NCBI GenBank assembly: GCA_010405405.1 | Contig: MU004242.1 | Location: forward strand, 159,751 to 223,750 | DNA from: Microthyrium microscopicum | Taxonomy: Eukaryota | Reading direction: 5' to 3' | DNA length: 64,000 bases | Shown here: positions 10,597 to 61,015 of the stretch, in pieces | Numbering within the stretch: position 1 is the first letter of the stretch | How the letters are laid out: each line of letters opens with the position of its first letter | Position numbers and translations under genes: made by a program | Notes under the pieces: generated by a model | What the model was told of the DNA's origin: nothing | The model's input: the letters and a program-made list of their open reading frames with translations, nothing else | The model's database searches: none

Positions 10597-11316
10597 CTAC
10601 AAACTCAGCGCATAAGCACCAACCACAGTCCCCATAACCAACACCACACATCTCAACGCATTATACTGCTTCCACCTAATCGCCAACTCCTTCGTCGAGC
10701 AACTCTCCTCTAGCTTCTTCGTGCCCTTATCTGCCAGGCTATATCTGATCACATAGCTCTGTTTCTCCGAACCGCCGGCCAATTTGTCTGCTTTGATAGA
10801 GAGTGCGCCGTTGATGTAGCGGAGGGCTGTCCAGGCGAATGCTGTGCCGCAGCCGGTCATTAGGGTGGCGGCGATGAAGAGCTTTTGAACGAAGGAGGTT
10901 TTTGCTGTGGAGGATGTTAGTTGGGGATGGGAGTGGTAGGGATGAGAGGAACGGACCGGTGTAGGCGAGGTAGGACCAGCTGAGGATGTTGATGATTGTT
11001 GCTGGCATGGCGATCTATGGGTTTGTTAGTTTTGTGCACTAAAAGGTCGCGGTAGGCTGATGGATTGTTGGGTGGGAGACGTACTTGGAAGCCTTTCAAA
11101 AATTGTATTCGCCATTGTTTTGCCATGGTTGCTTCATCTGGCGCCATGAGGATGGCCGTCAGAGCTGCGTCTGATAGTGCCGATGCATATCCTGTCCAGA
11201 TAGTTAGACGTGGTTTTGTGAGCCTCAACTGCCTGGTGTGTCATTATACCGGCAAATATTCCTGAGCTCGAAATACTGGCCACTTTAGCCAATGAGGTGA
11301 GTGAAGGTAAAGCCAT
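10597..11316 (-). CDS. Small multi-pass membrane protein, DUF1772/anthrone-oxygenase-like, copy A
   Basis: MALPSLTSLAKVASISSSGIFAG / ...AKQWRIQFLKGFQ / ...INGALSIKA...ELAIRWKQYNALRCVVLVMGTVVGAYALSL. The terminal W...N..R motif is typical of DUF1772. Three introns. Confidence 0.7.
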
Positions 11317-12283
11317 GATGATAGCCTTATGGATAAACAACTATTCTGGAAAATATATCACTTGTAAATCTGAAGCTAACAAATTTGCTTATAGCTACAA
11401 TCAAGTGCAACCGGCATTTATAAGAACACGGCATAGCGCCCAAGAGCTGGCCCGATTACGCACCTAAACAGGCAATTGGGACATGATTTAGTTGCTGTGT
11501 TGGACGATTCGCAGCTCATCAAATGGACCAGTTGCAGAAGCATGATTTGAAATGGTTCGTTGGACGGCTCGGAGCTACCGAATCAACCAGTTATGTATAC
11601 GCAACTCTGGGCCCAATTAGGACCTGACTGTCAAAGTAGGTTCGAGACTCTCTACTGCGCAGGAGATGGCGAAGAGGAAAGGAAATAAGATGATATACAT
11701 TTGTCTGGTTTTAGTTCCTTGCTTTTGTACGATACGGCAATAAATTGTGGTAAGATATCGTACATCAGATTGGTAGCGATAGCTTATAGCAGCGTGATCT
11801 TCCACCCTCAGACATGTTGAAGCAGACATATGTTTCCACCCCAAGTACCTGAGAGGTGACAAACTATGCCCATATCGTTTTTATCTGATGTGGAATATGC
11901 TATATGCTAATTGACTTGCTACATATAGACCACACATAACTGTTATATTGCCTTTAGATCGCTCTGCTCGCTGTTGACTAGGTTCTCATGAGTTGCATTT
12001 CATGTGTTATACTTTACAGTGTCTCTCGACGGACAGAATAAGTGAGCCGTTTCGACGACTACTCCCACTGACTGCAATGGCTGCCATAACACTTCTTAAA
12101 GAGGGGCTGCTCTAATTACCATCATATTTGATAATCAGATTTAATGTAACTTTTACGACGCTGATAGGAATGAAAGCAATCACCCTTTAAGAAGTAATGA
12201 TAGCGTTTGAACTTTTCGCCTTCCATCAATGCTGGCTTCCGAGTAGGCTCTGACGCTGCTACGTGGTTGACTTTCCACGTTAT

Positions 12284-12869: not shown

Positions 12870-13561
12870 CTACAAGGCCAAAGCATAAGCACCCACGACC
12901 GTACCAAGAAGCAAGATCACCGATCTAAACGCATTATACTGCTTCCACTTAGCCGCCAATTCCTGCGTTGAGTGTCCTGCTTCCAAGTTCTTCGTCCCGC
13001 TTTCCTTACGGCTGTAGTTCAGCGCAATACTCTGTTGCGGACCTGCCGATTTGTCTGCCTTGATCGCCAATGCACCGTTGATGTAGCGTAAAGCTGTCCA
13101 GGCAAATACTGTGCCAGAGCCGGTGGTTACGGCTGCTGTCACGAACAATTGGCGAGCGAATGTGTCCGAGGCTAGAGAAGGTTAGTCATGGTAAAAGCAT
13201 GATGGGAATTACTGATAGAGAGACGGACTAATGTAGGCAAGGTAGGACCAGCTAAGGATGTTGATGACTGTTGCGGGCATGGCGATCTAAACAATCAGTT
13301 TCTGTATAGGTGAATCTCATTGCTGGAGGAGACGAACAAGGAAGCCTTTGAGATATTGGATTCGCCATTGTCGAGCTACTGTCACTTCGTCGGAAGCGGC
13401 GATTATCGCGGGCATAGCTGCGTCTGATAGTGCCCAAGTATATCCTTGAACTGTCAATTATGACTTTCTATTTATCCTTGGAGAAATATCTTACCTGCAA
13501 ATATTCCTGAACTCGATATACCCGCAACTTTGGCTAAGGAGGTGAGTGTGGGTAGTGCCAT
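12870..13561 (-). CDS. Small multi-pass membrane protein, DUF1772-like, copy B (tandem paralog)
   Basis: Closely similar to 10597-11316 (FAWTALRYINGAL.IKADK; W KQYNA.R; GTVVGAYALAL) with the same intron layout. Confidence 0.72.
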
Positions 13562-14154
13562 AATGATAGATAATAGAAATTCACATGCAACAAATATTAG
13601 AAATCTCAAAAACTGTCAAGTGAACGAGAGATCGTAGGGTCTATTCAAGTGAAAACCGATCAGTATTTATCAAAAATGGATACATTATCAGGGCTGACCG
13701 ATTGCGCAGTCATTGGGGACGTTTCGGCCGCTTTGTTGGAGAATTCCAGAACTCGGCGAATCAGCATTAAATAGTTCTTACATGTGCATGTGTTGGCCCC
13801 ATCTTCAGCCTGATTGTCATTTACACCAAGTCTCGCCGCCGTCTTGGAACACAATTAGTGAAATAAGCAGAAAAAATAAAGACAAATAGATTGGATGGGG
13901 GCTGGGAAAGGAGTTTGCATTCCGCTACCTCTGGATTTCGGCGGAGATGAGACATATTTGGATCATAGGTTGCGATTGACCTCTTGAAAATCGACAGTGG
14001 AGTTCTGACAATGAGGATAATAATGCAGAGTATGGTTGGCGGGAGGTTACGAAATTGAAGGCAGAAGAGGAATGTTCTATAAGAATTACAATTCGCTTCT
14101 CGATAGTTGAAATTGATGAACAAAAGGAAGTCAAAGAGCTAATATACACAACAA

Positions 14155-17100
14155 CTACCACCCCTCAAATATCGAATCCATCTTCTTCAGCAACTCCTCC
14201 TCCTTGACTTTACGTGACTTGGACAAATCATCCGGCGAAGGAGTGGGCTTCAACTGATTTAAGCTTGTCGATGAATTGGATACAGTCCCTTCCAATACCG
14301 CCAAACCGGCAAACACTGTTTGCGAAATGTCCCTCGATATGATCCGTGGCTGCTTTTGGGTGAAGGAAGCAGAACCAGGTTTCTTCTTCCGTTCCAATTT
14401 CGCTGCATTCAACAACGCATCCAAATCATCATCGTCAGTTCTCTGTGCCCTTTTTGCCGACACATCAGTATGCGGCTCCTTGACCAGGTGTCCCAGCTGC
14501 GCAATAGCCTCACTACGAGCACCCCAATCGACGTCTGCCTCTGATTCAGGAGCTTCACGAAGCAGCGACTCCAGATCATCTTCCCACTCAGCAAGCCTGT
14601 GGCCAGCTTTGGTTCGGACAGGGCGGGCCTTGGGCAGTGTACCTGCCGAGAGCAGGAATCTCAACATCCACGGATTCTTTATCGCTTGGTGAGCTGCTGC
14701 AGCGAGTTGCAGCTGTTGAGAACTTTCACGGTAGTCGGGCCGAACGGTTGGATATTGCACCATTCGCAGTTTGTGCGATAGCTTCAAGGCTTTATCTCTA
14801 GCAGCTCTGTATGCTTGTTCGCGGGAGCGAGACCTCATCATACCAACGACATGTCGTCGGATAGGAGGGCCTCTTGGGCTGAGATCAGAATTCACGCGAT
14901 TTAATACAGGAGACGTAAGTACAGGAGTAAACCCATACTTGAGCATGCTGTGGTTCTGTTGCCACGGATTTTGATGCTTCGCCAATGATCGGAAACCCCT
15001 GGTCTTGCTCTTAAATCGTCGAACTTGGATGCTCAGCTTCGACCGTGGAGCAGTTCGCTCACGTCGAACTTTTATGCGTATCATCTGGCTTACAGAGGGG
15101 CCATTGCCGCGAACGACTAGCCTCACTGTGGGATCTGGGGAGGCAGTGCTGGCAAAATACTTCCGTGAGAGACTGCCATCTTGCTCCTGCTTGCGTCGCT
15201 TTGACCATGATCTGGTAAGTATAGCCTCGTCCGATAGAAGCTTATCATATGCGTGTTGGAACAAGATTCTGGCTTTTTTATAATAAGACTGCAGATGTTG
15301 CTTCGCGGCTGCTTGATATCGGCGGCGTCTGAGGTGCCGATCTGGCATTTTCCTGGAGACGATTGGCGGTCTGTGTATGGGATCGTACTTTGACAGAAGA
15401 CTATTAACCTGCCTTATTGTGGTATGCTTACTCTCGGAATGGACAGAGGTGTGACGTGTGATTGACAGGAACTTGCCGGAACTGGGTGATGGCTTACTAT
15501 CGGATAGGCGTTTTGTTAGGTAACTGCCAGCTTGCCTTGGACTAGGAGACTCGGCATAGACAGAAGGTTCCTCTTTGTTTGTGTTGTGAAGGGAGATCCG
15601 AGCTTTGGGTACCTTGTACATGGTTAAGGCAGGCTTAGAGGATGTATCAGGCCATGTGCGGTGCCTCCGGATGGTGTGAAATTTCGAGAGCGTCCGCGAG
15701 ATCCGAAGTCTGGGTGCCTCATACATGGCAAGACCAGGCTTAGGAGACTTAGCAGGCCGTCTGCGTTGCTTCTGGATAGTGGGAGATGTCGGGAACTTCC
15801 GCACAGGGGGTTTCCCCAGGCCTGATGGTACTTTGCGTTGCAAAAGAGCGGAAAAGATATGCTCTTTCAGCTTGGGATGGGAGGCTGGCCAAAGAACAGA
15901 AGCCGCATCAACGAATCGGCTATCAACAACAGCTTCGTGTTTTTCAATAATTCGCACAAAAGGCATAACTGTGATTTCGGTGACCCAGGCCTTTGCGTTG
16001 CTGCTGGGTGGAAAGCTGCCAATAACAAGATCTTCTGTATTCTGTTGATTCCACGAATTATCAAGCGGGAACCAGTTAAGATCGAAGTTCTTAGAATAAA
16101 ACGGGTCGTTGAAGAAAGCTATGCTCTCAGGCTTCAATGGTTTGAAATTCGAATCCTGGGTATCAATCTCTTGAGTTATATCCAAATTTTGGGCAGAAGA
16201 AGATGAAGGACTATCCATCGTAATATCTTTGCCAAGATGAAGCATGTTGCCCAGACTACACTGTCTCCAGGATAGATCTGCCGTCTTGTCGAGAAAGGAT
16301 GTGTCATTCTTTGGTAGAGCAGGCTGTGATAGTTGCGAATGAAATTCTAAAGGCATGTCCTGTCCCTTTTTAATCGGTGAGCCTTTTGAGATGGAAAACT
16401 GTGTCTTCCGTTTCTCGATATTTTCAACCAGCGTATGTTTACGCAAGACCAGATGAGTAAGACCTTTTTTTATGATCATGCGCCTTGGTTGTTCAAAGAG
16501 CTCCAGATGTGGAATTATTGGTTCCTGAGTGTTGGGTTGATTCTTAGTTGCCTTCAACGCTTTTCGCATCTCCTTCCGCATCTTATTCCGTTCCTTGAGT
16601 CTTTCGAATCTCTGTTCCATTAACTGTGGCACCGGCCTTTTCCACATGGCCATATTGTGCTCTGTTGCACGGGGTGCACGTGGTTTTCTGATCTCCAAAA
16701 GATTTGTTGTCGTTGAAATTTTGAACCGCTCCGATGGTCGCTGCTGACCGAGTTGGTATTGACTTCCATTTGCAATCAACGACTGTTTCTCAAGCGCTTC
16801 GACGCGCAATTCCGTGCCTTCTCCTTCCTCGTGTTTTTCAAAGAGCTCACGTTTCTCTGCCACGGATGGTTTTGCTGCCTTCTTAAGCGCATGGTTAAAC
16901 AAATGTGCAGTCCGGGTGGGCATTTCAGCTGTTGCATGTCGTATGATGTTCACGACTGGCACTTCGACTTGTCCTGAATTCAATTCGTGGCTTTCAACGG
17001 CAGAGAAACCATGCTGCTTTGTCGGCAGGTTTTTTGTGGACCACTTGGAAATCTTAGGAGTTGGGTTGGCAGTTGTGTTGACTACTTCAATAAAACTGTC

Positions 17101-17289
17101 AAGCCCTCTCCAAGCTTCCAGTGACCTTCTCGCTGCAGCCGCATTTTGACTGTCGGGTTTCTTCTCGATCATTTGACTTGAATGCTTGAGCGACTTCATG
17201 ATCCAAGATTGCCACCGTTGCTTGATTTTATCCCTTTCAGACTGCAGGTCATTAGATGGTGAGTCCTTAGACACCAAGTCCTTAGACAT
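14155..17289 (-). CDS. 1044-aa basic low-complexity ORF; probably a readthrough extension of the upstream polymerase gene
   Basis: Uninterrupted 3.1-kb ORF, in frame with the upstream ORF and only 24 nt past its stop, leaving no room for its own intergenic promoter. K/R/S/P-rich with no recognisable domain. Confidence 0.7.
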   Translation of the reverse strand: MSKDLVSKDSPSNDLQSERDKIKQRWQSWIMKSLKHSSQMIEKKPDSQNAAAARRSLEAWRGLDSFIEVVNTTANPTPKISKWSTKNLPTKQHGFSAVESHELNSGQVEVPVVNIIRHATAEMPTRTAHLFNHALKKAAKPSVAEKRELFEKHEEGEGTELRVEALEKQSLIANGSQYQLGQQRPSERFKISTTTNLLEIRKPRAPRATEHNMAMWKRPVPQLMEQRFERLKERNKMRKEMRKALKATKNQPNTQEPIIPHLELFEQPRRMIIKKGLTHLVLRKHTLVENIEKRKTQFSISKGSPIKKGQDMPLEFHSQLSQPALPKNDTSFLDKTADLSWRQCSLGNMLHLGKDITMDSPSSSSAQNLDITQEIDTQDSNFKPLKPESIAFFNDPFYSKNFDLNWFPLDNSWNQQNTEDLVIGSFPPSSNAKAWVTEITVMPFVRIIEKHEAVVDSRFVDAASVLWPASHPKLKEHIFSALLQRKVPSGLGKPPVRKFPTSPTIQKQRRRPAKSPKPGLAMYEAPRLRISRTLSKFHTIRRHRTWPDTSSKPALTMYKVPKARISLHNTNKEEPSVYAESPSPRQAGSYLTKRLSDSKPSPSSGKFLSITRHTSVHSESKHTTIRQVNSLLSKYDPIHRPPIVSRKMPDRHLRRRRYQAAAKQHLQSYYKKARILFQHAYDKLLSDEAILTRSWSKRRKQEQDGSLSRKYFASTASPDPTVRLVVRGNGPSVSQMIRIKVRRERTAPRSKLSIQVRRFKSKTRGFRSLAKHQNPWQQNHSMLKYGFTPVLTSPVLNRVNSDLSPRGPPIRRHVVGMMRSRSREQAYRAARDKALKLSHKLRMVQYPTVRPDYRESSQQLQLAAAAHQAIKNPWMLRFLLSAGTLPKARPVRTKAGHRLAEWEDDLESLLREAPESEADVDWGARSEAIAQLGHLVKEPHTDVSAKRAQRTDDDDLDALLNAAKLERKKKPGSASFTQKQPRIISRDISQTVFAGLAVLEGTVSNSSTSLNQLKPTPSPDDLSKSRKVKEEELLKKMDSIFEGW

Positions 17290-17313
17290 CGAGTCCTCAT
17301 CACCATCACCTAG

Positions 17314-19974
17314 TCACGGACTTTGCGGCGATTCGTCCGACAGGGCTGAAGATTGCTGTGTTTTGGAGGTAGCAGTGTTGTTATTTGAACCATTCTTGCT
17401 GGAAAGATCGGAATCCTTGAACCGAAGCCCGCCCTTTTCATTGCTGAATCGAATAAGACTGCGAGCAATGCGGGCTCTTCGTCGTTGGCCTTGATGATTG
17501 CGTGTCCACGGCGACGATGAAAACTGCCGTCGCTGCTCTATCGAACCAGTCACCTGCGATTGTGTGCTCGCAGATTGTGTACTTGTCGGCGGTGCTTGAA
17601 ACGGGTCCGGCACAATTTCCAACAATGAGGTGTCTGTCAGCTCTTCAGGATTGTCAATCGTCTCCAAATCTTGGAAGCCATCATCCGGCACCTGACTAGC
17701 TACGCTGGTTTTGTCCTCTGGTATATCCTCAAGTGAGAGAATTCGTTCGTTTGTCTTCAACTTTCCATCGTGCACGAGTCCCCGCCCATACTCCTGGCCA
17801 CGCTGACGATCTTTCGAGAAAGTGGCATGATAATCGCCTAAAGCTGTATCCAAGAAAGTTTGTAGGCCATCACCCTGCTCTGAGAGTTCCAATTTTCCAG
17901 TAAGGTCCTTGTGCAGAAATCTGAAAGTGGCAGCGATGTGTTTCCATTCAAAGGTCTTGTGGCCCAGATCGTTGTGTTTGTCGGCCGGATCTTGGATGCA
18001 AGGCAGAAATTGCATAGTTGGATTGGCCAAAGTAAGCTCAGCGAGAGCATGTTCATAGCGCTGCTCGTTTGTGTTTGGGTAAGGTAGGGGTGGAATGTCG
18101 GTGACTTGCTTCAACTTTGGTCTCAGAGTTCCTAGCGGAGAAGCACAAACTGCCAGATGGTAAGTATCGAGATTGCCCCAGTAATCCAGATATTTCAGCA
18201 AGTTTTGTGTGAGACCAGTATTTGCCGAATCCTGGAGTTTGAGAGTGGTAGCAACCATTACGACCAAAGGATACGAACCAAGGCCCCCAGAGAAAACATC
18301 GGTCAGACCACGGATATGGAGCATAGACTTGATGAAAGCATACATGGGTCGAAAATGTGCATGTTTTTGATAGCCCTTGACCAGAGAAATTGGGATTTTA
18401 CTGGTGTTGCATGCGACAACCTGAACAAGAACCCCGGAACGCTTATGCACAGTCGTAATCAATGGGTATCTGGCATACACAAGTTTTGGCCAAGTGAATC
18501 CTTGTTTAGGCAAATTGGTTCCGATAGCACGTAGCAATTTGAAGGCTTTGAGTTTGGCAGCCCTGCTGGGAGACCACCATGTCTCGGAATTATTCTTGTC
18601 GTAAACTCGGATATCAACATCGGATGTCGCAAGTGCAGTACCAGTGACAGTAGACCCAAATATTTGAGACTTGTACTGTCCACCTGAAGCATATATCTTT
18701 TTGGAAACCAGGCTGACAGTTGTCTTGATTATGTTGGCGACTACCAGCCGACTAGCAGCTTCTTCAGTGGTTGGGTACGCATACTGGGAGAATTGTTCGA
18801 TTTCAGCCTCCAGCCCGGCAGTCCCTTTGAGAGGACTGTCGTCTGTAAGCCAAGGATATTGAGGGAGATCTTCAGTGACTGCATCGGGCAATGCGCGTGG
18901 CTGTACGGCAAGTCCAGTATAATCCAACTGGCTATTGTTTTCTTCTGAATTGCTAACTGTTGCAACAATTTTCGAGGCGTCGATATCGCCATAGAAGCTG
19001 AGATGACCAAACACGGCCTGCCCCTTCTTGAATTTTGCAAAAGGGGATTTTATATGGCTTTGCCCACTATCATCTCGAGATATAGTTCTGTACGATATAG
19101 GCACTCGTTGTGTCTGAATTTTCGACCCGTTGAACAGCGCTTCTGATGGAGGACCAAGAGCGGCGTTGCCATCAGTCTGGTCGAGGAGCTTTGATATTTT
19201 CGAAGGCGCCCCAGGTACTGTCGGAGTAGTATCAAGGGTTTCATTACGACCATACTCGTTGTGATTGGTATAGTATAGTACTCGCTTCATAGGACTTTCA
19301 GGATTCTTGGGTCTCGTATTTCCATTAAGAGGTCTTATAACTCCATACGAGCTTTTGGCACCTCGCGCGGGAGGTGAAGCAGGTTGGTTGTCGGGTTCGA
19401 TAATACTTCGCATAGACTGTGACGGCTGGTTCCAGAAAAGTGAGAATTGATCAGTCTTCCCATCTAAGAGTTTTGCACGCATAGGTACAGTTTGAGCCGT
19501 GGAGCCTTCATCTTTTGGTAAAAGAAGTTTGCGCACTGGTTTCTTTACATGAATTGATGATTTGCCCAACAAGAGCTTACGATCAAAAGTGTTCTTCACG
19601 CTGCCATCTGATGGGCTCTGGTGAATTGGGGATGACAAATGCCGCTCGGATGATGTAGCATATTTCTTCTTCCGTGTCTCTGTAGACCCCCTTGCAGTTG
19701 ATAATCTTGTGCTTTCCCGTTTTTCTTTGGGCGCGGGTTGACTGAGCCGGTTTTTCTGTCGCAGTTCTTGAAGAGCTTGGAGGAGTCGACCGCCCGTGGC
19801 AGTACTTGCTACCTGTGTATCGTCGCTGCCTTGAACATGAGTCGCCGACTGGGAGGCATAGTAACGAGCGAATGATAGGGGTTTGGGATTGTGTATGAAG
19901 ATATCACGAAGGGCGTGATGAAGGCTAAAGGCATTGATGGACAGGCAAGCCGCCTGGTGGCGAGCAAGCGGCAT
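17314..19974 (-). CDS. Non-canonical poly(A) polymerase / terminal nucleotidyltransferase (Trf4/PAPD5/Cid family), predicted mitochondrial
   Basis: IFGSTVTGTALATSDVDIRV (GS...DxD), YARYPLI, GGLGSYPLVVMV, and CIQDPADKHNDLG (PAP-associated motif). Presequence-like N-terminus ending ARYYAS. Confidence 0.88.
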   Translation of the reverse strand: MPLARHQAACLSINAFSLHHALRDIFIHNPKPLSFARYYASQSATHVQGSDDTQVASTATGGRLLQALQELRQKNRLSQPAPKEKRESTRLSTARGSTETRKKKYATSSERHLSSPIHQSPSDGSVKNTFDRKLLLGKSSIHVKKPVRKLLLPKDEGSTAQTVPMRAKLLDGKTDQFSLFWNQPSQSMRSIIEPDNQPASPPARGAKSSYGVIRPLNGNTRPKNPESPMKRVLYYTNHNEYGRNETLDTTPTVPGAPSKISKLLDQTDGNAALGPPSEALFNGSKIQTQRVPISYRTISRDDSGQSHIKSPFAKFKKGQAVFGHLSFYGDIDASKIVATVSNSEENNSQLDYTGLAVQPRALPDAVTEDLPQYPWLTDDSPLKGTAGLEAEIEQFSQYAYPTTEEAASRLVVANIIKTTVSLVSKKIYASGGQYKSQIFGSTVTGTALATSDVDIRVYDKNNSETWWSPSRAAKLKAFKLLRAIGTNLPKQGFTWPKLVYARYPLITTVHKRSGVLVQVVACNTSKIPISLVKGYQKHAHFRPMYAFIKSMLHIRGLTDVFSGGLGSYPLVVMVATTLKLQDSANTGLTQNLLKYLDYWGNLDTYHLAVCASPLGTLRPKLKQVTDIPPLPYPNTNEQRYEHALAELTLANPTMQFLPCIQDPADKHNDLGHKTFEWKHIAATFRFLHKDLTGKLELSEQGDGLQTFLDTALGDYHATFSKDRQRGQEYGRGLVHDGKLKTNERILSLEDIPEDKTSVASQVPDDGFQDLETIDNPEELTDTSLLEIVPDPFQAPPTSTQSASTQSQVTGSIEQRRQFSSSPWTRNHQGQRRRARIARSLIRFSNEKGGLRFKDSDLSSKNGSNNNTATSKTQQSSALSDESPQSP

Positions 19975-20563
19975 ATAGATAATGAAAAGAAGATCAGCAA
20001 CGCAGTGCCATGACCCAACAAAAGAATTGATGCTCTACTACCGCGCTGTGCTTGTCAAGGAGGAATCAGAAAATTTGGATATGTACTCGGTAGTCCAGTC
20101 GCTGAACTTGGAGCTTGAGAAAAGATTTAGGAGAGCTTGGGCTAGTGAGCTAGTCTGAATACGCTCTAGCGCAAAGTATTGTAAAATATAGACCAAAGGG
20201 TACTAGTACGACATATGCCAACTCACTCAGATGTCCAACACCATCTCTTGCTTCACCACTACTGCATCAATAATGCTCTCGCCAGCCCGTTTAGCCTATC
20301 TCGTTAGACTAAACCCAACCTACGCTCTGACTTGCTGCCGTTGCGCCTCAAATATCTGACTGGGCGACTTTGAGCCGCCTGTCAGCCAATTGGACTGGCC
20401 ATCTTAAGCAGCCTGTCATTTCCCCTGACTGGGTGTATAACTGTAGATTTATTTTCTCATTTCAGTACAAAAGACTACCTTGACTGCTTGAAAAGCCCTC
20501 GTAGCGCTTTCATGTTTTTTACCAATTTCATACAAGTCTTGGAAAGTCTCCAAATTACGTTTC

Positions 20564-22399
20564 ATGGCCGATATTCAAACTCTCAATGGAAAATACTCTC
20601 AGTCCACTTTACGGCAGTGGATTCTTTGTTTGTATGCTAGCTTCAACATCGACACGCTGATGCACCTGCTTACTTGTAATTATTAGTGTAGTATGCAACT
20701 TCAACGTCGATATTGGTAGGTTGTTCCTTGATACAATAATGGTATCTGTAACAATTTTCCCCATCTACCTCCATAATATTTCTACGTAGACCAAACTAAC
20801 TTCATAGCAGGACCTGAAGTTGAAGTCGTATATCCCTCTGACACACCATTTTCAGCTGTAGACCTTTCTACTATATGTTTCGACAGTTTTCCTGAACGGC
20901 ACGATGGCGAAATCACTGAAGACATGTACTATAATTTCACATTGAGAAACAACTCGCCTGATATCAATTTGACTTCACCATCACCACCCTACGGAAGTCC
21001 TGAATCATTCCATGGCGTTACAGTCTTTAGACAAGAGTATGATGGCTCTAGCAAGAGACGGTTCAATCAAAAGAGCCTGGTCATAATATCCAACCACGAA
21101 TTCTCTTCATTCTTTATGAACCTCCTAAGAGTCATCGTCACTGGAAGTAATATCGGCGACATCACGAGGCTCGAGTCTGCTTGTGCCCAGATTGAAGGAT
21201 GGCCACCTCCAAGAATCGGAACTCAAGAACTCCCTTTTCTTGGGGGTAAGATGGTTCTCGAAATGTACGTCTATTCTACTTACCCCTATATCCAACTAAC
21301 AAGTTTCAGCCCACCATATCAATCATTTCCCCTCTCAGGGCTCCCGTCTCCATTATCAGCAAGCACTTCACTCCTTTCTCATGTATCTGCCTACGAGCCA
21401 ACCGAGAACTGGCCCTCTCTACTCCCGCTCCTGCACTCCCCAGCAACTCTCTACATCCTCTACGAACGCCTCCTTCTCGGCGACCCCATTATTGTCCTCG
21501 GCACGTCCCCATCCCACGTCTCCGCCATCATAACCGCCCTCACCGACCTAATCCGCCCCATCCCCTACGCCGGCACCATACGCCCCTATCTACCCATGCA
21601 GTCCACGGGCCTCATGGGTGAAGCCGCTCTCTTCGACCCATCAGCCTACACCACCCCTTACATCGCCGGCATAACGAACCCGTTCCTTCTCCAACGCCTC
21701 TCCACACCCAATATACCAAACATCAGCACACCATACATCCTCGCACTATCCTCGCCACCAACCGCACCCAATCTCAATGCACCAAACACAACCACGCCAT
21801 CCAGCGGCTACTCCATTCTCCATCCCTCACGCAGTCTACGCCACCGCCATTCTTCTAGGAGGATAGACGTCCCAGGCACACCGATAAAAAGCCAACCAAA
21901 ACCAATCCACCACCTAAAAGCAGACCGCACATTCCTCACCGCTCTATCCGACGCACACTCCGGCGATGCCAGTGCAGCGCTAGGAGTACGCAGACATTTC
22001 GCTGATTTGACAGCGAAGTTACTCGCGCCCGCGAACCGGTTCCTTGCGACGGGGGCGGATGCTAGTGCCGCAATCGCAGTCAGCCAAGCGAGCGGAGCGA
22101 GTCAAGTGAGAGGAGTGAAAGTAGTGAACAATGAGGGTGAAGCGATGGGCTATGAAAGCAAAGTAGAGATTCAAATGGCAGTTGAGGCAGGCGAAGTCTC
22201 AAATTTCAGCGTCGATGCCTTTCTCCTCGCTCTTGAATCCCAAGTGCCAGCACCATTTGTGGGGCAGACAGTACGCGGACGGCAGCGGTCGCGGGATGCG
22301 TTTTATGCGCGGTTTTGTGCGAGTGGGAACTTTGAGGCGTGGTTGGAGTTGAGGAGGGCTAATGAGCGGTTGGGAGGAGCTGGGTTGTTGGGTGGATGA
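20564..22399 (+). CDS. DENN-domain protein (DENND6/FAM116-like), multi-exon
   Basis: Spliced N-terminus WILCFVVCNFNVDIGPEVEVVYP...ICFDSFPE; also FRQEYD...RRFNQKSLVIIS, LLLGDPIIV, IAGITNPF and RRHFADLT..LLAP. Confidence 0.85.
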
Positions 22400-32673: not shown

Positions 32674-34458
32674 CTAATTAGATTCGACGAAAGTTTCCGC
32701 CGCGAGCTTCGCCACAACACGCGCAAGGGCCTCAGGGAAAGTTGCTACATCAGCCCACTCATCACAGTGTTCATTCATCACGTCGTGAAGAGCCTGTTGT
32801 CGAGCAGTATTCGACCAGATGCCGTTCCGGAAATAATCACCAACCATATTCCAAGCGTCTGGATAGTACATCAATCTAGAATCCAGTAGGTTGACCTGGA
32901 ACGCGAAGGCTAAAGTATCCGACACGAGAACTTGAATGTCGTAAGGAGTCATTGCTGCACATTCATCTTCGGCCAACCGGTCGTTGAGATTTGCGTCGTT
33001 TTCGTGCTTAGTTCGCTCGGAATTCGAATTTGCATGAATCACTGTGGAGGACTCAAAGCCCATGCGGAGACCATGCTGTGAGTTTGAACCAAAGCCTTTG
33101 GTGGCATCTGGATGTCCAGTCATTTGAAGGGCCATGGAGGCATCCGACTTAACGTGCCAGTCAAAGACCAACATCGAATCAGCGCTCATGTAGTGCCCGA
33201 GGCCAGGCTCTGTATCCAGCGGGATCGCAGAGCTATCATCATAGAAAAGCCCTGGCAGCTCGGATCGTAGGTCCGGGAGAGTTGAGACAATGGATTGAAG
33301 CGGAGCTTGCTGTGGTGGACGGGCGGCTTGGTTGGTGGTGGAAAAAACGACAATAATCTGACCCAAGAGAGTGAGGGCTTCATCGCACTGAGGTTTCCCA
33401 GCAACAGGAGACCCACCCTTATACCACTGCATATACTCTTTGACAAGCTGCGTGAAGCGACGGGAGCATGCTCGCTCGCTTCGGTGCTGGAATTCGTTCT
33501 CGATTTCGGCCCAGTCAATGGTTTTGATGCCTCTATAAGTCCCTTGAGCGGTCTCTGCTGCAACATATGACTGGACGGTCTGTAGTAGCTGGACTGTCTC
33601 CGCATCCGCCCATTTGCCAGTACGACCGGCGATGGCTGGCTTGCCGATGATGTCCTTGGCGATTTCGTCTCCATGTACTGCGAGCTTTTGTTGCTCGTTG
33701 AGCGTTGGATGACTCAATAGCCCGACTCGAACTGCTACTATGTTTCGAGTTTGAAGAGCGTCCGCACAGTAGTGTCGAATCCATTGGATCAATTCTGGAG
33801 TTAATGGAGTCCGTGGACCCATGAATGTTCGCTGAATCTTGGGCTGAATAGCTCTACGGGAGCTGGTATCGGCAGAGCGCAGAGGAACGGCATTTTGAAT
33901 CTCCCGATAGATGACGCGCCACGCGTTCTCGTCACCCCCATTGTCGCTGTTGAGAGATGTATCAAGCTGGCTCATCTTCTTCTTTAGCGGAGGAAGACAA
34001 GATATAATTCGATACATCTCAATCGTGGTCAAGCTGTACCGAGTCATGAAGCGATTGAGAGCATCAGTGGCTTGTCGAATCTCCCATTTGGTCCCTAGCT
34101 TTGTTAGTGGACGATTACATTACAGTGTTGCGGTCAACTTACACATTCCAGAAGACACTGGTCCTGGCTTTTGCCCGTAGCCTTGTCGACGATTCTCAAT
34201 GGGCTTGATATAGTGATTTGGGCCTAGCATGGCCTCGGCATGGGCATCGAAAAGCTCGGGGTTCAGATTTGTAGTGTCAGTGGCAGCTTGTGGGAGAGAA
34301 ACTGGCGTCGCAATCTGCTGCTGGCTCATGAGCGAGGCATTTTGCTGGCCATTCACCGTATTACCACGCTGACCCAATGTGCCATTGCTGGCGCTAGGGT
34401 CAAAGAGAGCCCAAGAGAGCGAACCAGAGAGCGAACCAGTAAGGGAAAGGTGAGACAT
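32674..34458 (-). CDS. Myb/SANT-domain protein, paralog 2 (one intron, 34095-34142)
   Basis: Splicing gives PGPVSSGMWTKWEIRQATDALNRFMT, collinear with paralog 3. Myb repeat GKWADAETVQLL...IDWAEI...RSERACSRRF. Start codon uncertain. Confidence 0.75.
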
Positions 34459-34878
34459 GTTGTTCTCAATGACAGTAGACAGACAAATTTTTGAGATGTG
34501 ATGTCCAGATCTCAGTGCACCCTCGGGGATGGTAAAGGAAGTCTGTCGAAGATGGGCTTGTTGTGATGGTTTTGGATTAAGTTGACAGTATAGATTTCTA
34601 CACAGCAACGAAAGCTTAAAAGAATTGCTTAGATGGCCCGCCATTAACATTTCAGTCACTTCTAGTAAGTGGAAGCCGTGATACTGCATCCATAGTGAAA
34701 CTGACTTTGTTGTCATACTCAAAGGCATCATTGAAACCCCTGGGTTGCCATAAGACAACCCGTCACTACTATCACCACGTCAGGAAGATAGCAATAGGTT
34801 ACAAACGCATATATATCATTGTCAAGTGATAGTGGATTAACAATATATTGTTCTTTCAGTCGCTACGGATGCAGGTAC

Positions 34879-56365: not shown

Positions 56366-57235
56366 TCATTCATCGTCCTCGTCGTCCAAGCCAAAGCCTT
56401 GAAAAGCCGTCTTCTTCGGCCTCTCCATGGAACCGACCACCTGCGCACGCTCTCTCGGTATCGCACTCAATGGCGCAATATCTTCCATCGCAGTCTCCGG
56501 TCGTTGTTCCGTCTGTATTGTCAATTCTTCTACTGGCGCGACCTTTGGAATCAGGCCCAGATCAGCTGGTAAGAGGCCCTCGTTGACCTGTTTTGTGATA
56601 GCGGACAGTGCGCTTGCCTGAATTTCATCGGCATTGGGAAACGGAAGGAAGAGAGCGCGCTGGTTCGCCTGTAGCATTTCTTGCTCAGCAGATGGTAAGT
56701 TTGACCAGGCAAAATCGTCTTTTTTCGTTGCTCCCTCGCTTGTATCCGTCTGCGCTGGTTCTAGCACGTCTGGAATCGCCGCTGCTTCCGTCGCTGGTGC
56801 ATCCTCTGGTACTGGCTCCTCCACCTTGCGCTCATCCGGCATGGTATGTGGTACCGTAAAGCGGCTGATATTCTTTGCAAATCTCAATAACTCCGCAACA
56901 CCGACTTCCCGTCCCTTGGTGCTGACTTCTGTCCATTCTAAATCGACCAATTGACTTCTCAGATCAGCGATAGTCCGAACGCTCTCTTTGACCTGGTTGT
57001 CCAAGCTGTCGGCGAGCGCGCGTAGTTGCAGAAGGCGGGCGTAGTTATCCTGGTGCTCGCGCAGAGTCGCGAGGCAGGCAATGAAGGTATCTTCGGCGTC
57101 CATGAGTGAGTGAATAGCTGGTATTGAAGGGGTATATTTTGTGATGGAGGTCAAAAGCGCGTTGGTTTGGGACTCGAGGGCAGCGAGGGCGGATGTTGTT
57201 TGTAGGCCCATTGTTTTGGCGGGGGTTCGCGCCAT
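56366..57235 (-). CDS. MED4: Mediator complex subunit 4
   Basis: Coiled coil L..L.EHQDNYARLLQLR, then VAELLRFAKNISRFTVP, LPFPNADEI, and an acidic end FGLDDEDDE. Confidence 0.88.
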   Translation of the reverse strand: MARTPAKTMGLQTTSALAALESQTNALLTSITKYTPSIPAIHSLMDAEDTFIACLATLREHQDNYARLLQLRALADSLDNQVKESVRTIADLRSQLVDLEWTEVSTKGREVGVAELLRFAKNISRFTVPHTMPDERKVEEPVPEDAPATEAAAIPDVLEPAQTDTSEGATKKDDFAWSNLPSAEQEMLQANQRALFLPFPNADEIQASALSAITKQVNEGLLPADLGLIPKVAPVEELTIQTEQRPETAMEDIAPLSAIPRERAQVVGSMERPKKTAFQGFGLDDEDDE

Positions 57236-57901: not shown

Positions 57902-60900
57902 ATGGATCTTCAACGCCAAGAGTACCCGTCTATGCTGGTCCGTCATCCTATCGTCATAAACATATCCGCCAAAACCACTTTCTTCAATACTGACATTATC
58001 ACCATCTAGAAATCCCTCCAGCCTACCCAAGCAGTAACTCTATTAAATGGTAGACTGAACCATATTCGAGCCATCAATTCCGACGTCGCCGAATGGCTTC
58101 TAGTGCGTTTTTACCCATTCCCAGCCTCAGCCTTGGTCGCTACAATTTGCTGACCGCGTACCTGCAGGAACGACGGCGCATTGAAGAACAATATGCCATT
58201 TCATTGCGCAAACTATCCAAGAAGCCATTGAGTCAGGATCAGCTCGATTTGGGGTATGTTATACAATCCCGTCCATCGGTGCCACTCTAATAAGCTTTAG
58301 CATATTTACCACGCCATGGCAGAAAATCGTCGAGTCTACCGAGACGCTAGCCAATTCCCATCACACATTCGCCCGTAATATCGAAGGCGAAGTCGAAAAG
58401 CCATTGCGCAATTTTCCCCAGACAAGTCGAGAAATGGCCAATATGGAAAACATCCAAGGCAACATTGGTGCACTCGCCAGAGATTTTGATAACGCCAATA
58501 AGAAGGTCGAAAAGCTCAATCAAAAAGGTGGCAAAGCTCCAGCAGATAAAGTCGCAAGTGCAGCTACCGAAGTTGAAGATTCAAAAAGTTCATGGGATTC
58601 GCAAGCCCCATATGTCTTTGAAAAACTACAAGAGGTCGACGAAATGCGATTGGAATTGCTGCAAAAATGTTTGACGCAGTTCTTGACGTTTACTGATGAA
58701 ACCAAGAACTCGTCGAGTGCTAGTGTCGAGCAATGTTTAAATTCTTTACTAAATGTTCAGGTGTCGGATGAAATTCAGCACTTCTCGATGAAGGCGCCAG
58801 GGTCAATTCCTGCTGTTAGGGAACGGAGAATGAGTCGTCCGCAGGCTCCTCCTTCCTTTGCAGAGACTAGCAGTCTGGCACCGCCTTCCATACCCGCTGA
58901 CGCCGCTAGTATGCGTTCAGACTCTTGTAAGTCTTGATCTTGACTCTTTTGTCCAAGTCAAAATACTCGCTCAAGCCCAATACTGATCATGACCAGTTCA
59001 AGACATTCCCACACCAATGCAGGAAAAGCGTCAGAGCAAATTTGGTGGTGGCTTAAAGAGACTTGGAACTGTAATCAAAGGTCGGCGGAATAGCACACAT
59101 CCATATAGCCAACCGTTGCAGTCGCCAGAAAAGAAGAGGTCTTCAACCAATATAGCTTCGAAATTCTCATCGTTTGGCAAAAGAACCAAAGATACACCCG
59201 ACGCGTTGTCGCCACAAGCAACGGGAAATTCTCGTCGATCAGATGGTCAGGGTTCAACGACTCCAAGACCATCTGACCTTGATCCACCAAGTTTGGACCG
59301 GGCTATATCTTCACATTCAAACGCACCACCAATCGAAAGTCCTTCGGAGTTCGCACCAGTTTTACCTGTTATCGCATCGTCAGCTCCTCTCACGAATGGA
59401 AATCACACACCCGTGCAAAGAGAAGTTGAACAACTTCAACCTCCTTTGGAACCTACAACATCCGTTCCGGCGAACATACCGGCACCAGTAAGGCATGGGC
59501 TCGTTTTGCAAAACGGTAGCGCTGACATTTCGCAGGTGATAGAAGAGCCAGAACCAGAACCAGCTCCGCTCTCCGGTCCAGATGCCATTACTCAAGCTAT
59601 GAACGAAGCAGCCATGTAAGCAAGTTGACTGGTCTGTTATAGAAAATGCTGACTGTTCAGGTTAAATCCCGATGGGTCTCAAGCGCAATTCAAGGTTGAT
59701 ATAAAAAATGCACCAATTCAGGAAGAAGATGGTGATGCTACAGCCGCTTTAGCAAGTGTAGCAAATGCTCTTCGATCGGTAAGCTTCATTTAGTCGGGTT
59801 GAACTATTCGCTGATCCTTTATAGCAAGCAACTCCACGACGTAATCCAACTCTTCGAGGACGAAGAGATCGTAATACTATTATCGTACCTAGTCCTTCCG
59901 TTCCAGAGCTTCCCACGGTGTCAGCACTTGCATCGACATCAGCCTCTTCACTTCCAACCTCTCCTAATCCCAATACACAAAGCCCGACGCCACCTTTGGC
60001 TGCAACACCATTCAAATTGGCCCATCGATCTACTCTTGGAACAGATGATGGTGCAGCTTCAGATACCCACTCCATCCGATCTGGAAGGTCACTAAGCAGT
60101 ACCATGAGCAATACCGTTCGTCATCCAGACATGCATTCGCCCGGTCTCAACGCATCAATCGTCGAAACAGTAAGCGCATGGTTCGTAGGCGGTGAATGCA
60201 CAAAAGCCGTAGAAATCGGAGAAGTCGCCCTAGTCTTTAATTCCCACGATTCCGCGGAACCATCCGGCACCGAAACCATTCGATTCGACCACTTCAACAC
60301 ATTAGAAAAGGTTGCTCCTAATCCCGTCTTCATCGACCCCGTAGCCAACAAAGATGGCAACTACACAGTAAATCTTTCCCACATCGCACGCACTTCCGTC
60401 GCATTCAAATATCAAGTACATCTAGACGCCTCCAGCGCCTCAACTTCTGCTCCCCTTCGCCTTATCCCAGCATGGAAGGTTGGCGCTGAACAAACACTTC
60501 TTATGTTGACCTACTCCCTCAACCCCTCTTTCACCCCCAAAATCGCATCCGGCGTCTCGGCTGTCCATCTCACCAACGTCGTTCTCATAGCACATCTCGA
60601 TCCTGGTGCAGGCAAAATATCCCGCTGCCAGGCCCAAGGTGGTGGTGTCTATGATCGTCAGCGCAACATCGTCTATTGGCGCCTCAACGAAATCACACTC
60701 ACCAAAGATGCGCCTGCCCAAGCGCTGCGCGCACGCTTCTTTACGGAAGGCGAGGCGAAGCCGGGCCATGCAGAAGCAAGATGGGAGCTGGCGGGCGAGC
60801 AACTAGCAATGATGGGCAGTGGGATTGGACTAAGTCGCATGGACGCAGTGACACCTAAGCCAGCAGTGGAAGGTGAGGAGGCGGATCCATTTGCTGATGC

Positions 60901-61015
60901 TGATGCAGAGGAGAGTGGTGTGCCTACGCCGACGGTGAGTTGGACCGATGTTGCGACGGTGCGAAAGTTGAGGAGTGGGACGTATTCAGCAGAGGCCGCG
61001 CCTGTCAGTCCGTGA
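57902..61015 (+). CDS. SYP1: Muniscin endocytic adaptor (F-BAR plus mu-homology domain), multi-exon
   Basis: MDLQRQEYPSML..., ERRRIEEQYAISLRKL, WDSQAPYVFEKLQEVDEMRL; C-terminal PGLNASIVETVSAWF...GEVAL...LEKVAPNP. Confidence 0.9.

Follow-up and report, generated by a model that had tools for sequence, protein, structure and literature searches.

Candidate UGA-CUAG stop codon readthrough between a Trf4/Cid1-like gene and a long basic orphan reading frame in Microthyrium microscopicum

In a 64,000-nucleotide (nt) stretch of contig MU004242.1 of the fungus Microthyrium microscopicum (assembly GCA_010405405.1, forward-strand positions 159,751 to 223,750; hereafter the window), two long open reading frames (ORFs) of the minus strand share one reading frame and are separated by a single stop codon. 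The upstream frame, ORF1, encodes a protein of the Trf4/Cid1-type nucleotidyltransferases, the downstream frame, ORF2, encodes an orphan basic sequence, and the stop between them stands in the context UGA-CUAG. The best reading of this locus, held tentatively and at somewhat less than an even chance, is readthrough-coupled expression of two isoforms of 98 and 218 kDa. The fuller proposal, that programmed readthrough at ORF1-UGA-CUAG-ORF2 gives some of the enzyme molecules a basic, disordered tail of 120 kDa that is specific to the lineage, is possible and is put forward with a little more reserve. Within this reading we infer the single mRNA, the actual occurrence and rate of readthrough, and selection for the arrangement.

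ORF1 occupies positions 17314..19974 of the window (coordinates of the two ORFs and their junction are on the minus strand) and consists of 886 codons and a TGA, corresponding to a noncanonical poly(A) polymerase or terminal nucleotidyltransferase of ~98 kDa. At the junction the strand reads ...CAA AGT CCG TGA CTA GGT GAT GGT GAT GAG GAC TCG ATG TCT..., and the stop with its context spans 17310..17316 (TGA at 17316-17314, CTA at 17313-17311, G at 17310), within a low-complexity linker. The first in-frame ATG past the stop, at 17289-17287, follows a spacer of 24 nt, or eight sense codons (17290..17313), in which out-of-frame ATGs occur at 17306 and 17300. Counted from the stop, ORF2 covers 14155..17313, with 1052 sense codons and a terminal TAG (14157-14155), ~120 kDa; the ORF list enters it as 14155..17289, with 1044 amino acids (aa) counted from the first ATG. 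Translation of 14155-19974 in a single frame yields 886 + 1052 sense codons, one internal stop and the terminal TAG. An earlier note on this DNA had described an 886-aa ORF ending in TGA at 17316-17314, which the sequence and the ORF list confirm, and 1052 further sense codons to 14155 with a single internal stop, which the translation confirms. Its statement that a 24-nt gap is too small for a terminator and a promoter also holds at the confirmed spacer length, since 24 nt from the stop to the ORF2 ATG leave no room for conventional versions of the two. Its forecast that annotation would split the locus into two genes has come true, as public databases carry two separate proteins of 886 aa and 1044 aa.

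The open frame past the stop stands out among the 23 long ORFs of the window, in which the median number of open codons after the stop is 9. More than 53 open codons follow the stop in two of them, namely ORF1 (1052) and the ORF at 34120..34731 (481). By our own arithmetic, the chance of 1052 open codons is (61/64)^1052, or ~1e-22. In addition, a codon log-likelihood preferred frame 0 above both other frames in each of twelve 450-nt segments laid over ORF1 and ORF2. Given that the open frame is beyond chance and that an untranslated frame decays quickly, ORF2 should be translated in frame 0, now or until very recently.

The second ORF with a long open frame mimics a readthrough signature for a mundane reason and can usefully serve as a control in this genome. 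A 48-nt intron at 34095-34142 (minus strand; GTAAGT...CTAAC...TAG), which contains a TAA and has a length divisible by three, runs from 34142 to 34095 and joins ORFs of 203 aa and 457 aa in frame, so that 481 codons are open after the TAA.

The TGA of ORF1 is bridged by contigs of two sequencing runs from two studies, with no other letter and no gap. Run X4 is a DNA run with a depth of ~995 and is possibly the source of the assembly; run X5, from the other study and with a depth of ~310, is RNA only by conjecture; the two runs may come from the same strain. Because the TGA is identical in contigs of two studies, an assembly error is excluded. Mapping of raw reads to confirm the TGA was the check proposed in the earlier note; at the level of contigs, X4 and X5 carry the TGA, with no sense-codon variant. 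The X5 contigs present no differences over 6563 bases, and two further runs of the species, X6 and X7, together present one difference in eight pieces. These last two have depths of 2-4 and their cover excludes 17244-17477, which makes them uninformative on the TGA.

The stop context is exactly UGA-CUA-G. In the accessible part of PMC4207609, termination at UGA CUA (G) is described as weak in fungi and mammals, as shown in Ustilago maydis and in HeLa cells; CUA after UGA is sufficient for efficient readthrough in U. maydis reporters, and swapping UGA for UAG or UAA lowers readthrough. To that extent, the leaky UGA-CUA(G) background invoked by the earlier note is supported for these two systems. 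Within the window, CTAG was seen 278 times versus 499 expected from base composition over 128,000 positions (~0.2% versus ~0.4%). Given that CTAG follows a given triplet in ~0.2-0.4% of cases, a random nonsense mutation or a chance abutment of two genes would rarely have it, and readthrough is ranked first chiefly for the rarity of this context.

Under readthrough, ORF1 and ORF2 would belong to a single gene and be translated as one unit. Most ribosomes would terminate at the UGA and release the 886-aa (98 kDa) Trf4/Cid1-type nucleotidyltransferase. A minority would decode the UGA by a near-cognate tRNA, UGA-CUAG being a poor terminator, and would continue for 1052 codons to produce a 1939-aa (~218 kDa) isoform, whose basic, mostly disordered tail may bind RNA or partner proteins. 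The readthrough interpretation of the earlier note is partly supported, namely by the anatomy of the locus, the real TGA, the coding-like ORF2, the absence of plausible introns and the stop context.

Several observations weigh against this interpretation. No stimulatory RNA structure was detected in the 151 nt around the stop, which presented z = -0.03, with 97 of 200 shuffles folding at least as well. The fungal readthrough extensions on record are short peroxisomal signals, as far as the accessible part of PMC4207609 goes. For ORF2, a word-indexed protein search confirmed one of 7818 candidates, which is ORF2 itself; phmmer against 1.84 billion representatives returned ORF2 and one marginal 27-residue match; and the Atlas search yielded no match. 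The libraries searched thus contain no orthologue of ORF2, and the usual proof, a stop and a downstream frame that are both conserved, is unavailable. None of 7993 candidates of 1552-4430 aa proved to be a longer relative of ORF1, which is weak evidence, and the relatives that were found are short (350-680 aa in the Atlas and 747 aa for the protein P0003), so a 1052-aa tail is no family trait. Finally, a very recent nonsense mutation that chanced to fall before CTAG would give the same sequence picture.

Such a nonsense allele would mean that a former 1939-codon ORF acquired its TGA by one base change and that ORF2 is an undecayed relic, either untranslated or accidentally translated. We consider this unlikely, though far from negligible. 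In the genetic code TGA is one base away from TGG, CGA, GGA, AGA, TCA, TTA and TGY, ORF2 is free of any decay, as fits a very young event, and all sequence data are near-identical, X5 being without differences and X6 and X7 having just one. Loss-of-function alleles are common in single isolates. A nonsense allele explains everything but the exact CTAG context, which it would meet by chance in ~0.2-0.4% of cases. The same TGA was also found in two studies, albeit possibly of one strain, and the relatives of ORF1 have no such tail, although a lost tail would account for this just as well as one added in this lineage. If the TGA is a strain-specific nonsense allele, the locus is ordinary.

ORF2 might instead be expressed alone, either from its own mRNA with a start inside the 3' part of ORF1 or by reinitiation on a bicistronic mRNA at the 17289 ATG, the shared frame being accidental. 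This is rather improbable in our estimation. It agrees with the databases, in which the ATG at 17289 starts a protein of 1044 aa, and a shared frame has a 1 in 3 chance. However, no promoter fits in 24 nt, so the start site must fall within the ORF1 coding sequence, and the shared frame and the CTAG context must both be accidents. As a rule, ribosomes reinitiate very poorly once they have translated an ORF as long as 886 codons, and the ORF2 ATG has a T at -3, a poor context. Short-spacer bicistrons, natural and engineered, that are read by reinitiation are reported in ascomycetes in the accessible part of PMC10352335, where the IGG1/IGG6 bicistron of Glarea lozoyensis was tested in yeasts and in Aspergillus. 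This bicistron is similar to the present locus in being a same-strand ORF pair of an ascomycete with a spacer of a few to tens of bases. It yields two proteins by reinitiation and its frame is irrelevant, whereas here there are a shared frame, a readthrough motif and two intervening ATGs. The locus also departs from such a bicistron in that the AUG of ORF2 is not the first AUG past the stop, those at 17306 and 17300 coming earlier.

The stop could also be removed at the RNA level, by an unconventional intron or by stage-specific adenosine-to-inosine (A-to-I) editing of UGA to UGG, and we judge this quite improbable. As a reference set for splicing, ten ORF-joining introns of the window were picked by eye, with lengths of 46-70 nt (nine of 46-52 nt and a tenth of 70 nt). 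All ten have the donor GT[AG]NG[ACT], with G at +5, and the set has branch sites of the CTAAC/CTGAC type. This consensus donor is found in none of the 429 in-frame GT..AG pairs whose excision would take out the TGA, and in none of the 32 stop-spanning GT..AG pairs of up to 150 nt in any frame, which agrees with the earlier note's lack of a convincing intron. The point in favor of splicing is one in-frame 84-nt GT..AG pair, from 17317 to 17234, with a CTAAT branch-like site. This best candidate was rejected, as it presents C at +5 versus G in 10/10 reference introns and is longer than nine of the ten; moreover, the first AG past its branch site would give a 76-nt intron that is out of frame.

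Regarding editing, stage-specific A-to-I changes correct premature stops in filamentous ascomycetes, among them ~70 genes of Fusarium graminearum, as stated in the accessible part of PMC11156358. The F. graminearum genes PUK1, AMD1 and DBF2, examples of premature-stop correction and stop-loss editing, have an in-frame stop within an apparently single long coding region, as does the present locus, and in each case the full-length protein depends on getting past that stop. In the accessible parts of PMC11156358 and PMC13123824, however, fungal A-to-I editing strongly prefers U at -1 and corrects UAG to UGG, while UGA stays a stop; the edited sites of F. graminearum are likewise described as UAG codons that lie in hairpin loops and have U at -1. 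The stop considered here is UGA, its A is preceded by G at -1, and in the minimum-energy fold this A is paired rather than in a loop, all of which departs from the stop-correcting sites of fungi. No joint and no alternative letter at the TGA is listed in any of the four runs, although contigs drop rare forms and X6 and X7 have no cover there.

It is barely credible that the TGA encodes selenocysteine or that a variant genetic code makes it a sense codon. UGA is the selenocysteine codon, and some early-diverging fungi possess selenocysteine machinery. An Rfam scan of 12900-20400, selenocysteine insertion sequence (SECIS) elements included, gave no matches at E-values (E) up to 1, and no tRNA genes were found in the window. 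The TGA lies in a low-complexity linker and not in a redox motif. As TGA terminates several other ORFs of the window with Pfam-supported ends (e.g., 60104-61015 and 56366-57235), it is not a general sense codon, and a variant code is rejected. The remainder of the probability goes to explanations outside those listed.

Judged by its sequence, ORF1 is a complete Trf4/Cid1-type enzyme with additional N- and C-terminal regions. Residues 389-522 (18409..18810) match PF22600, the central palm domain of 'mitochondrial-like' poly(A) polymerases, with 31.2 bits versus a Pfam cut-off of 27. The sole solved relative is yeast Trf4/Pap2 (3nyb_A), with an E of 5.6e-7 over residues 372-582. The catalytic motif of the nucleotidyltransferase domain, G-S followed by D-x-D, is present, 'fgs...sdvd' in ORF1 standing opposite 'fgs...sdid' in 3nyb_A; PF22600, G-S and D-x-D are thus common to ORF1 and to polymerases of the Trf4/Pap2 and Cid1/Cid14 types. 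These results uphold the polymerase family in the earlier note's 'mitochondrial poly(A)-polymerase-like' protein, while 'mitochondrial' is merely part of the PF22600 name and the closest structure is Trf4/Pap2.

The nearest Atlas clusters are PF22600/PF03828 proteins of Ascomycota with 350-680 aa, whose family models align to ORF1 over residues ~383-730, and it is this alignment that indicates a complete enzyme. Compared with these clusters, ORF1 has 380 additional aa at the N-terminus and an acidic tail of 156 aa. PF03828, the PAP-associated domain, was not detected in ORF1 by Pfam at E up to 0.1; the region may be a diverged copy, given that the Atlas model aligns up to residue ~730. A protein search with ORF1 returned ORF1 itself and P0003, with 27% identity across 44% of the query. 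In one alignment column near residue 515 (~18430-18445), ORF1 has Q ('lvqvv') where 3nyb_A has A. This column may correspond to the catalytic aspartate of Trf4 that is third in order and was mutated for the 3nyb_A crystal construct. If it does, ORF1 may be missing its third carboxylate and could be a weak or inactive enzyme.

The product of ORF2 has an isoelectric point (pI) of 10.24, rising to 11.7 in residues 501-850. A single-sequence AlphaFold2 model gives 842 of 1052 residues a predicted local distance difference test (pLDDT) score below 50, with a mean of 41.7 and scattered long helices. We therefore only lean towards a mostly disordered ORF2, as single-sequence models are poor predictors. 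The very large basic disordered tail of the earlier note is in agreement with the pI and with the disorder predicted for most residues. ORF2 has no Pfam family, presents no similarity to ORF1 (best E of 0.40), and aligned with itself gives the identity alignment alone. In metagenomes, a scan with a peptide pattern matched 119 stretches, none of which was confirmed, and a scan with a 31-letter pattern around the stop, the stop being left open, gave no matches. Two observations concern variation within ORF2. Minor 60-letter contigs of run X4 at 14461-14551, each with one other letter and with depths of 9-27 versus ~900 for the main path, break the X4 contig and stem either from errors or from a variant at low frequency. 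Run X6 has a C>T change at 14450, at a depth of 2.6, in what is by our own count the second position of an arginine codon.

Among known systems, the genes with UGA-CU(A)(G), such as the Tpi1/Pgk1-type genes of U. maydis with cryptic peroxisomal targeting signals type 1 (PTS1) and human LDHB and MDH1, are identical to the present locus in the stop and the next four bases. Going by the accessible parts of the sources on them, their basal readthrough needs no downstream structure, and none is seen here either. Two isoforms arise from each of their mRNAs, as is proposed for ORF1 and ORF2. In contrast, their extensions are only a few residues long and terminate in a peroxisomal signal, while ORF2 adds 1052 residues and its C-terminal end, ...EGW, is not PTS1-like. 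They also have cross-species conservation and reporter proof, whereas the present locus is known from sequence alone.

A precedent for a very large extension is Drosophila kelch, in which ORF1 yields a protein of 77 kDa and UGA readthrough an ORF1-ORF2 protein of 160 kDa, as stated in the accessible part of bioRxiv 10.1101/2020.06.22.165522. There, as here, UGA separates two long ORFs; the corresponding products here would be of 98 and 218 kDa. However, kelch is an animal gene for which the same portion of the source gives a reported stem-loop enhancer and tissue regulation, while the present gene is fungal and has no structure signal. A further difference lies in the histories of the two extensions. 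The kelch extension is conserved among flies, whereas no relative was found for ORF2.

No run listed for this stretch is recorded as RNA. Some hints on transcription come from run X5, one contig of which, with 7119 letters, is colinear with 13500-20062. As this contig continues into the next downstream gene, it cannot demonstrate a single mRNA. Its end at 20060..20062, which lies 86-88 nt upstream of the ORF1 ATG, is a weak candidate for a transcript 5' end, the run type being guessed; 22 loose letters beyond 20062 are presumably sequencing adapter. If X5 is RNA, the locus may have a 5' end near 20060 and be transcribed unspliced. X5 has no cover at 20063-20326, where the DNA run X4 continues, and its next contig starts at 20327. 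This gap hints at an RNA origin of X5 and at divergent start sites, although an uncovered stretch alone proves nothing. The leader, from the end of the X5 contig (~20060) to the ORF1 ATG (19974), contains an upstream ORF of five codons, beginning with ATG and ending in TGA (19994..20011), and the ORF1 ATG has a T at -3. Together these may suggest translational control of ORF1.

If readthrough takes place here, no reported extension of a fungal cellular gene would come near this one in length, and it would rank among the longest of cellular genes in general. In a limited literature search, neither readthrough of a Trf4/Cid1-type gene nor a long extension in a filamentous fungus turned up. Fungal UGA-CUAG readthrough would then not be confined to short targeting signals and, as in Drosophila kelch, could double the size of a protein. 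ORF2 would be an orphan, disordered and young domain, born and kept as a readthrough-only sequence, which bears on the origin of new protein sequence. The locus also marks a class of genes that annotation pipelines split in two.

Two features of the neighborhood were observed along the way. Downstream of ORF2, at ~10597-11340 and ~12870-13470 on the minus strand, there are two tandem paralogous small genes with very similar last-exon peptides. The X5 contig of the locus starts within the second paralog copy, at ~12966 if colinear, and the repeat probably broke the assembly there. On the other side of the locus, the X5 contig starting at 20327 (plus strand) begins ~600 nt upstream of the listed ATG, at 20924, of an ORF with a DENN domain. 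Short intron candidates lie upstream of that ATG, at 20632-20686 and 20691-20789, which suggests that the DENN-domain gene has upstream exons absent from the ORF list.

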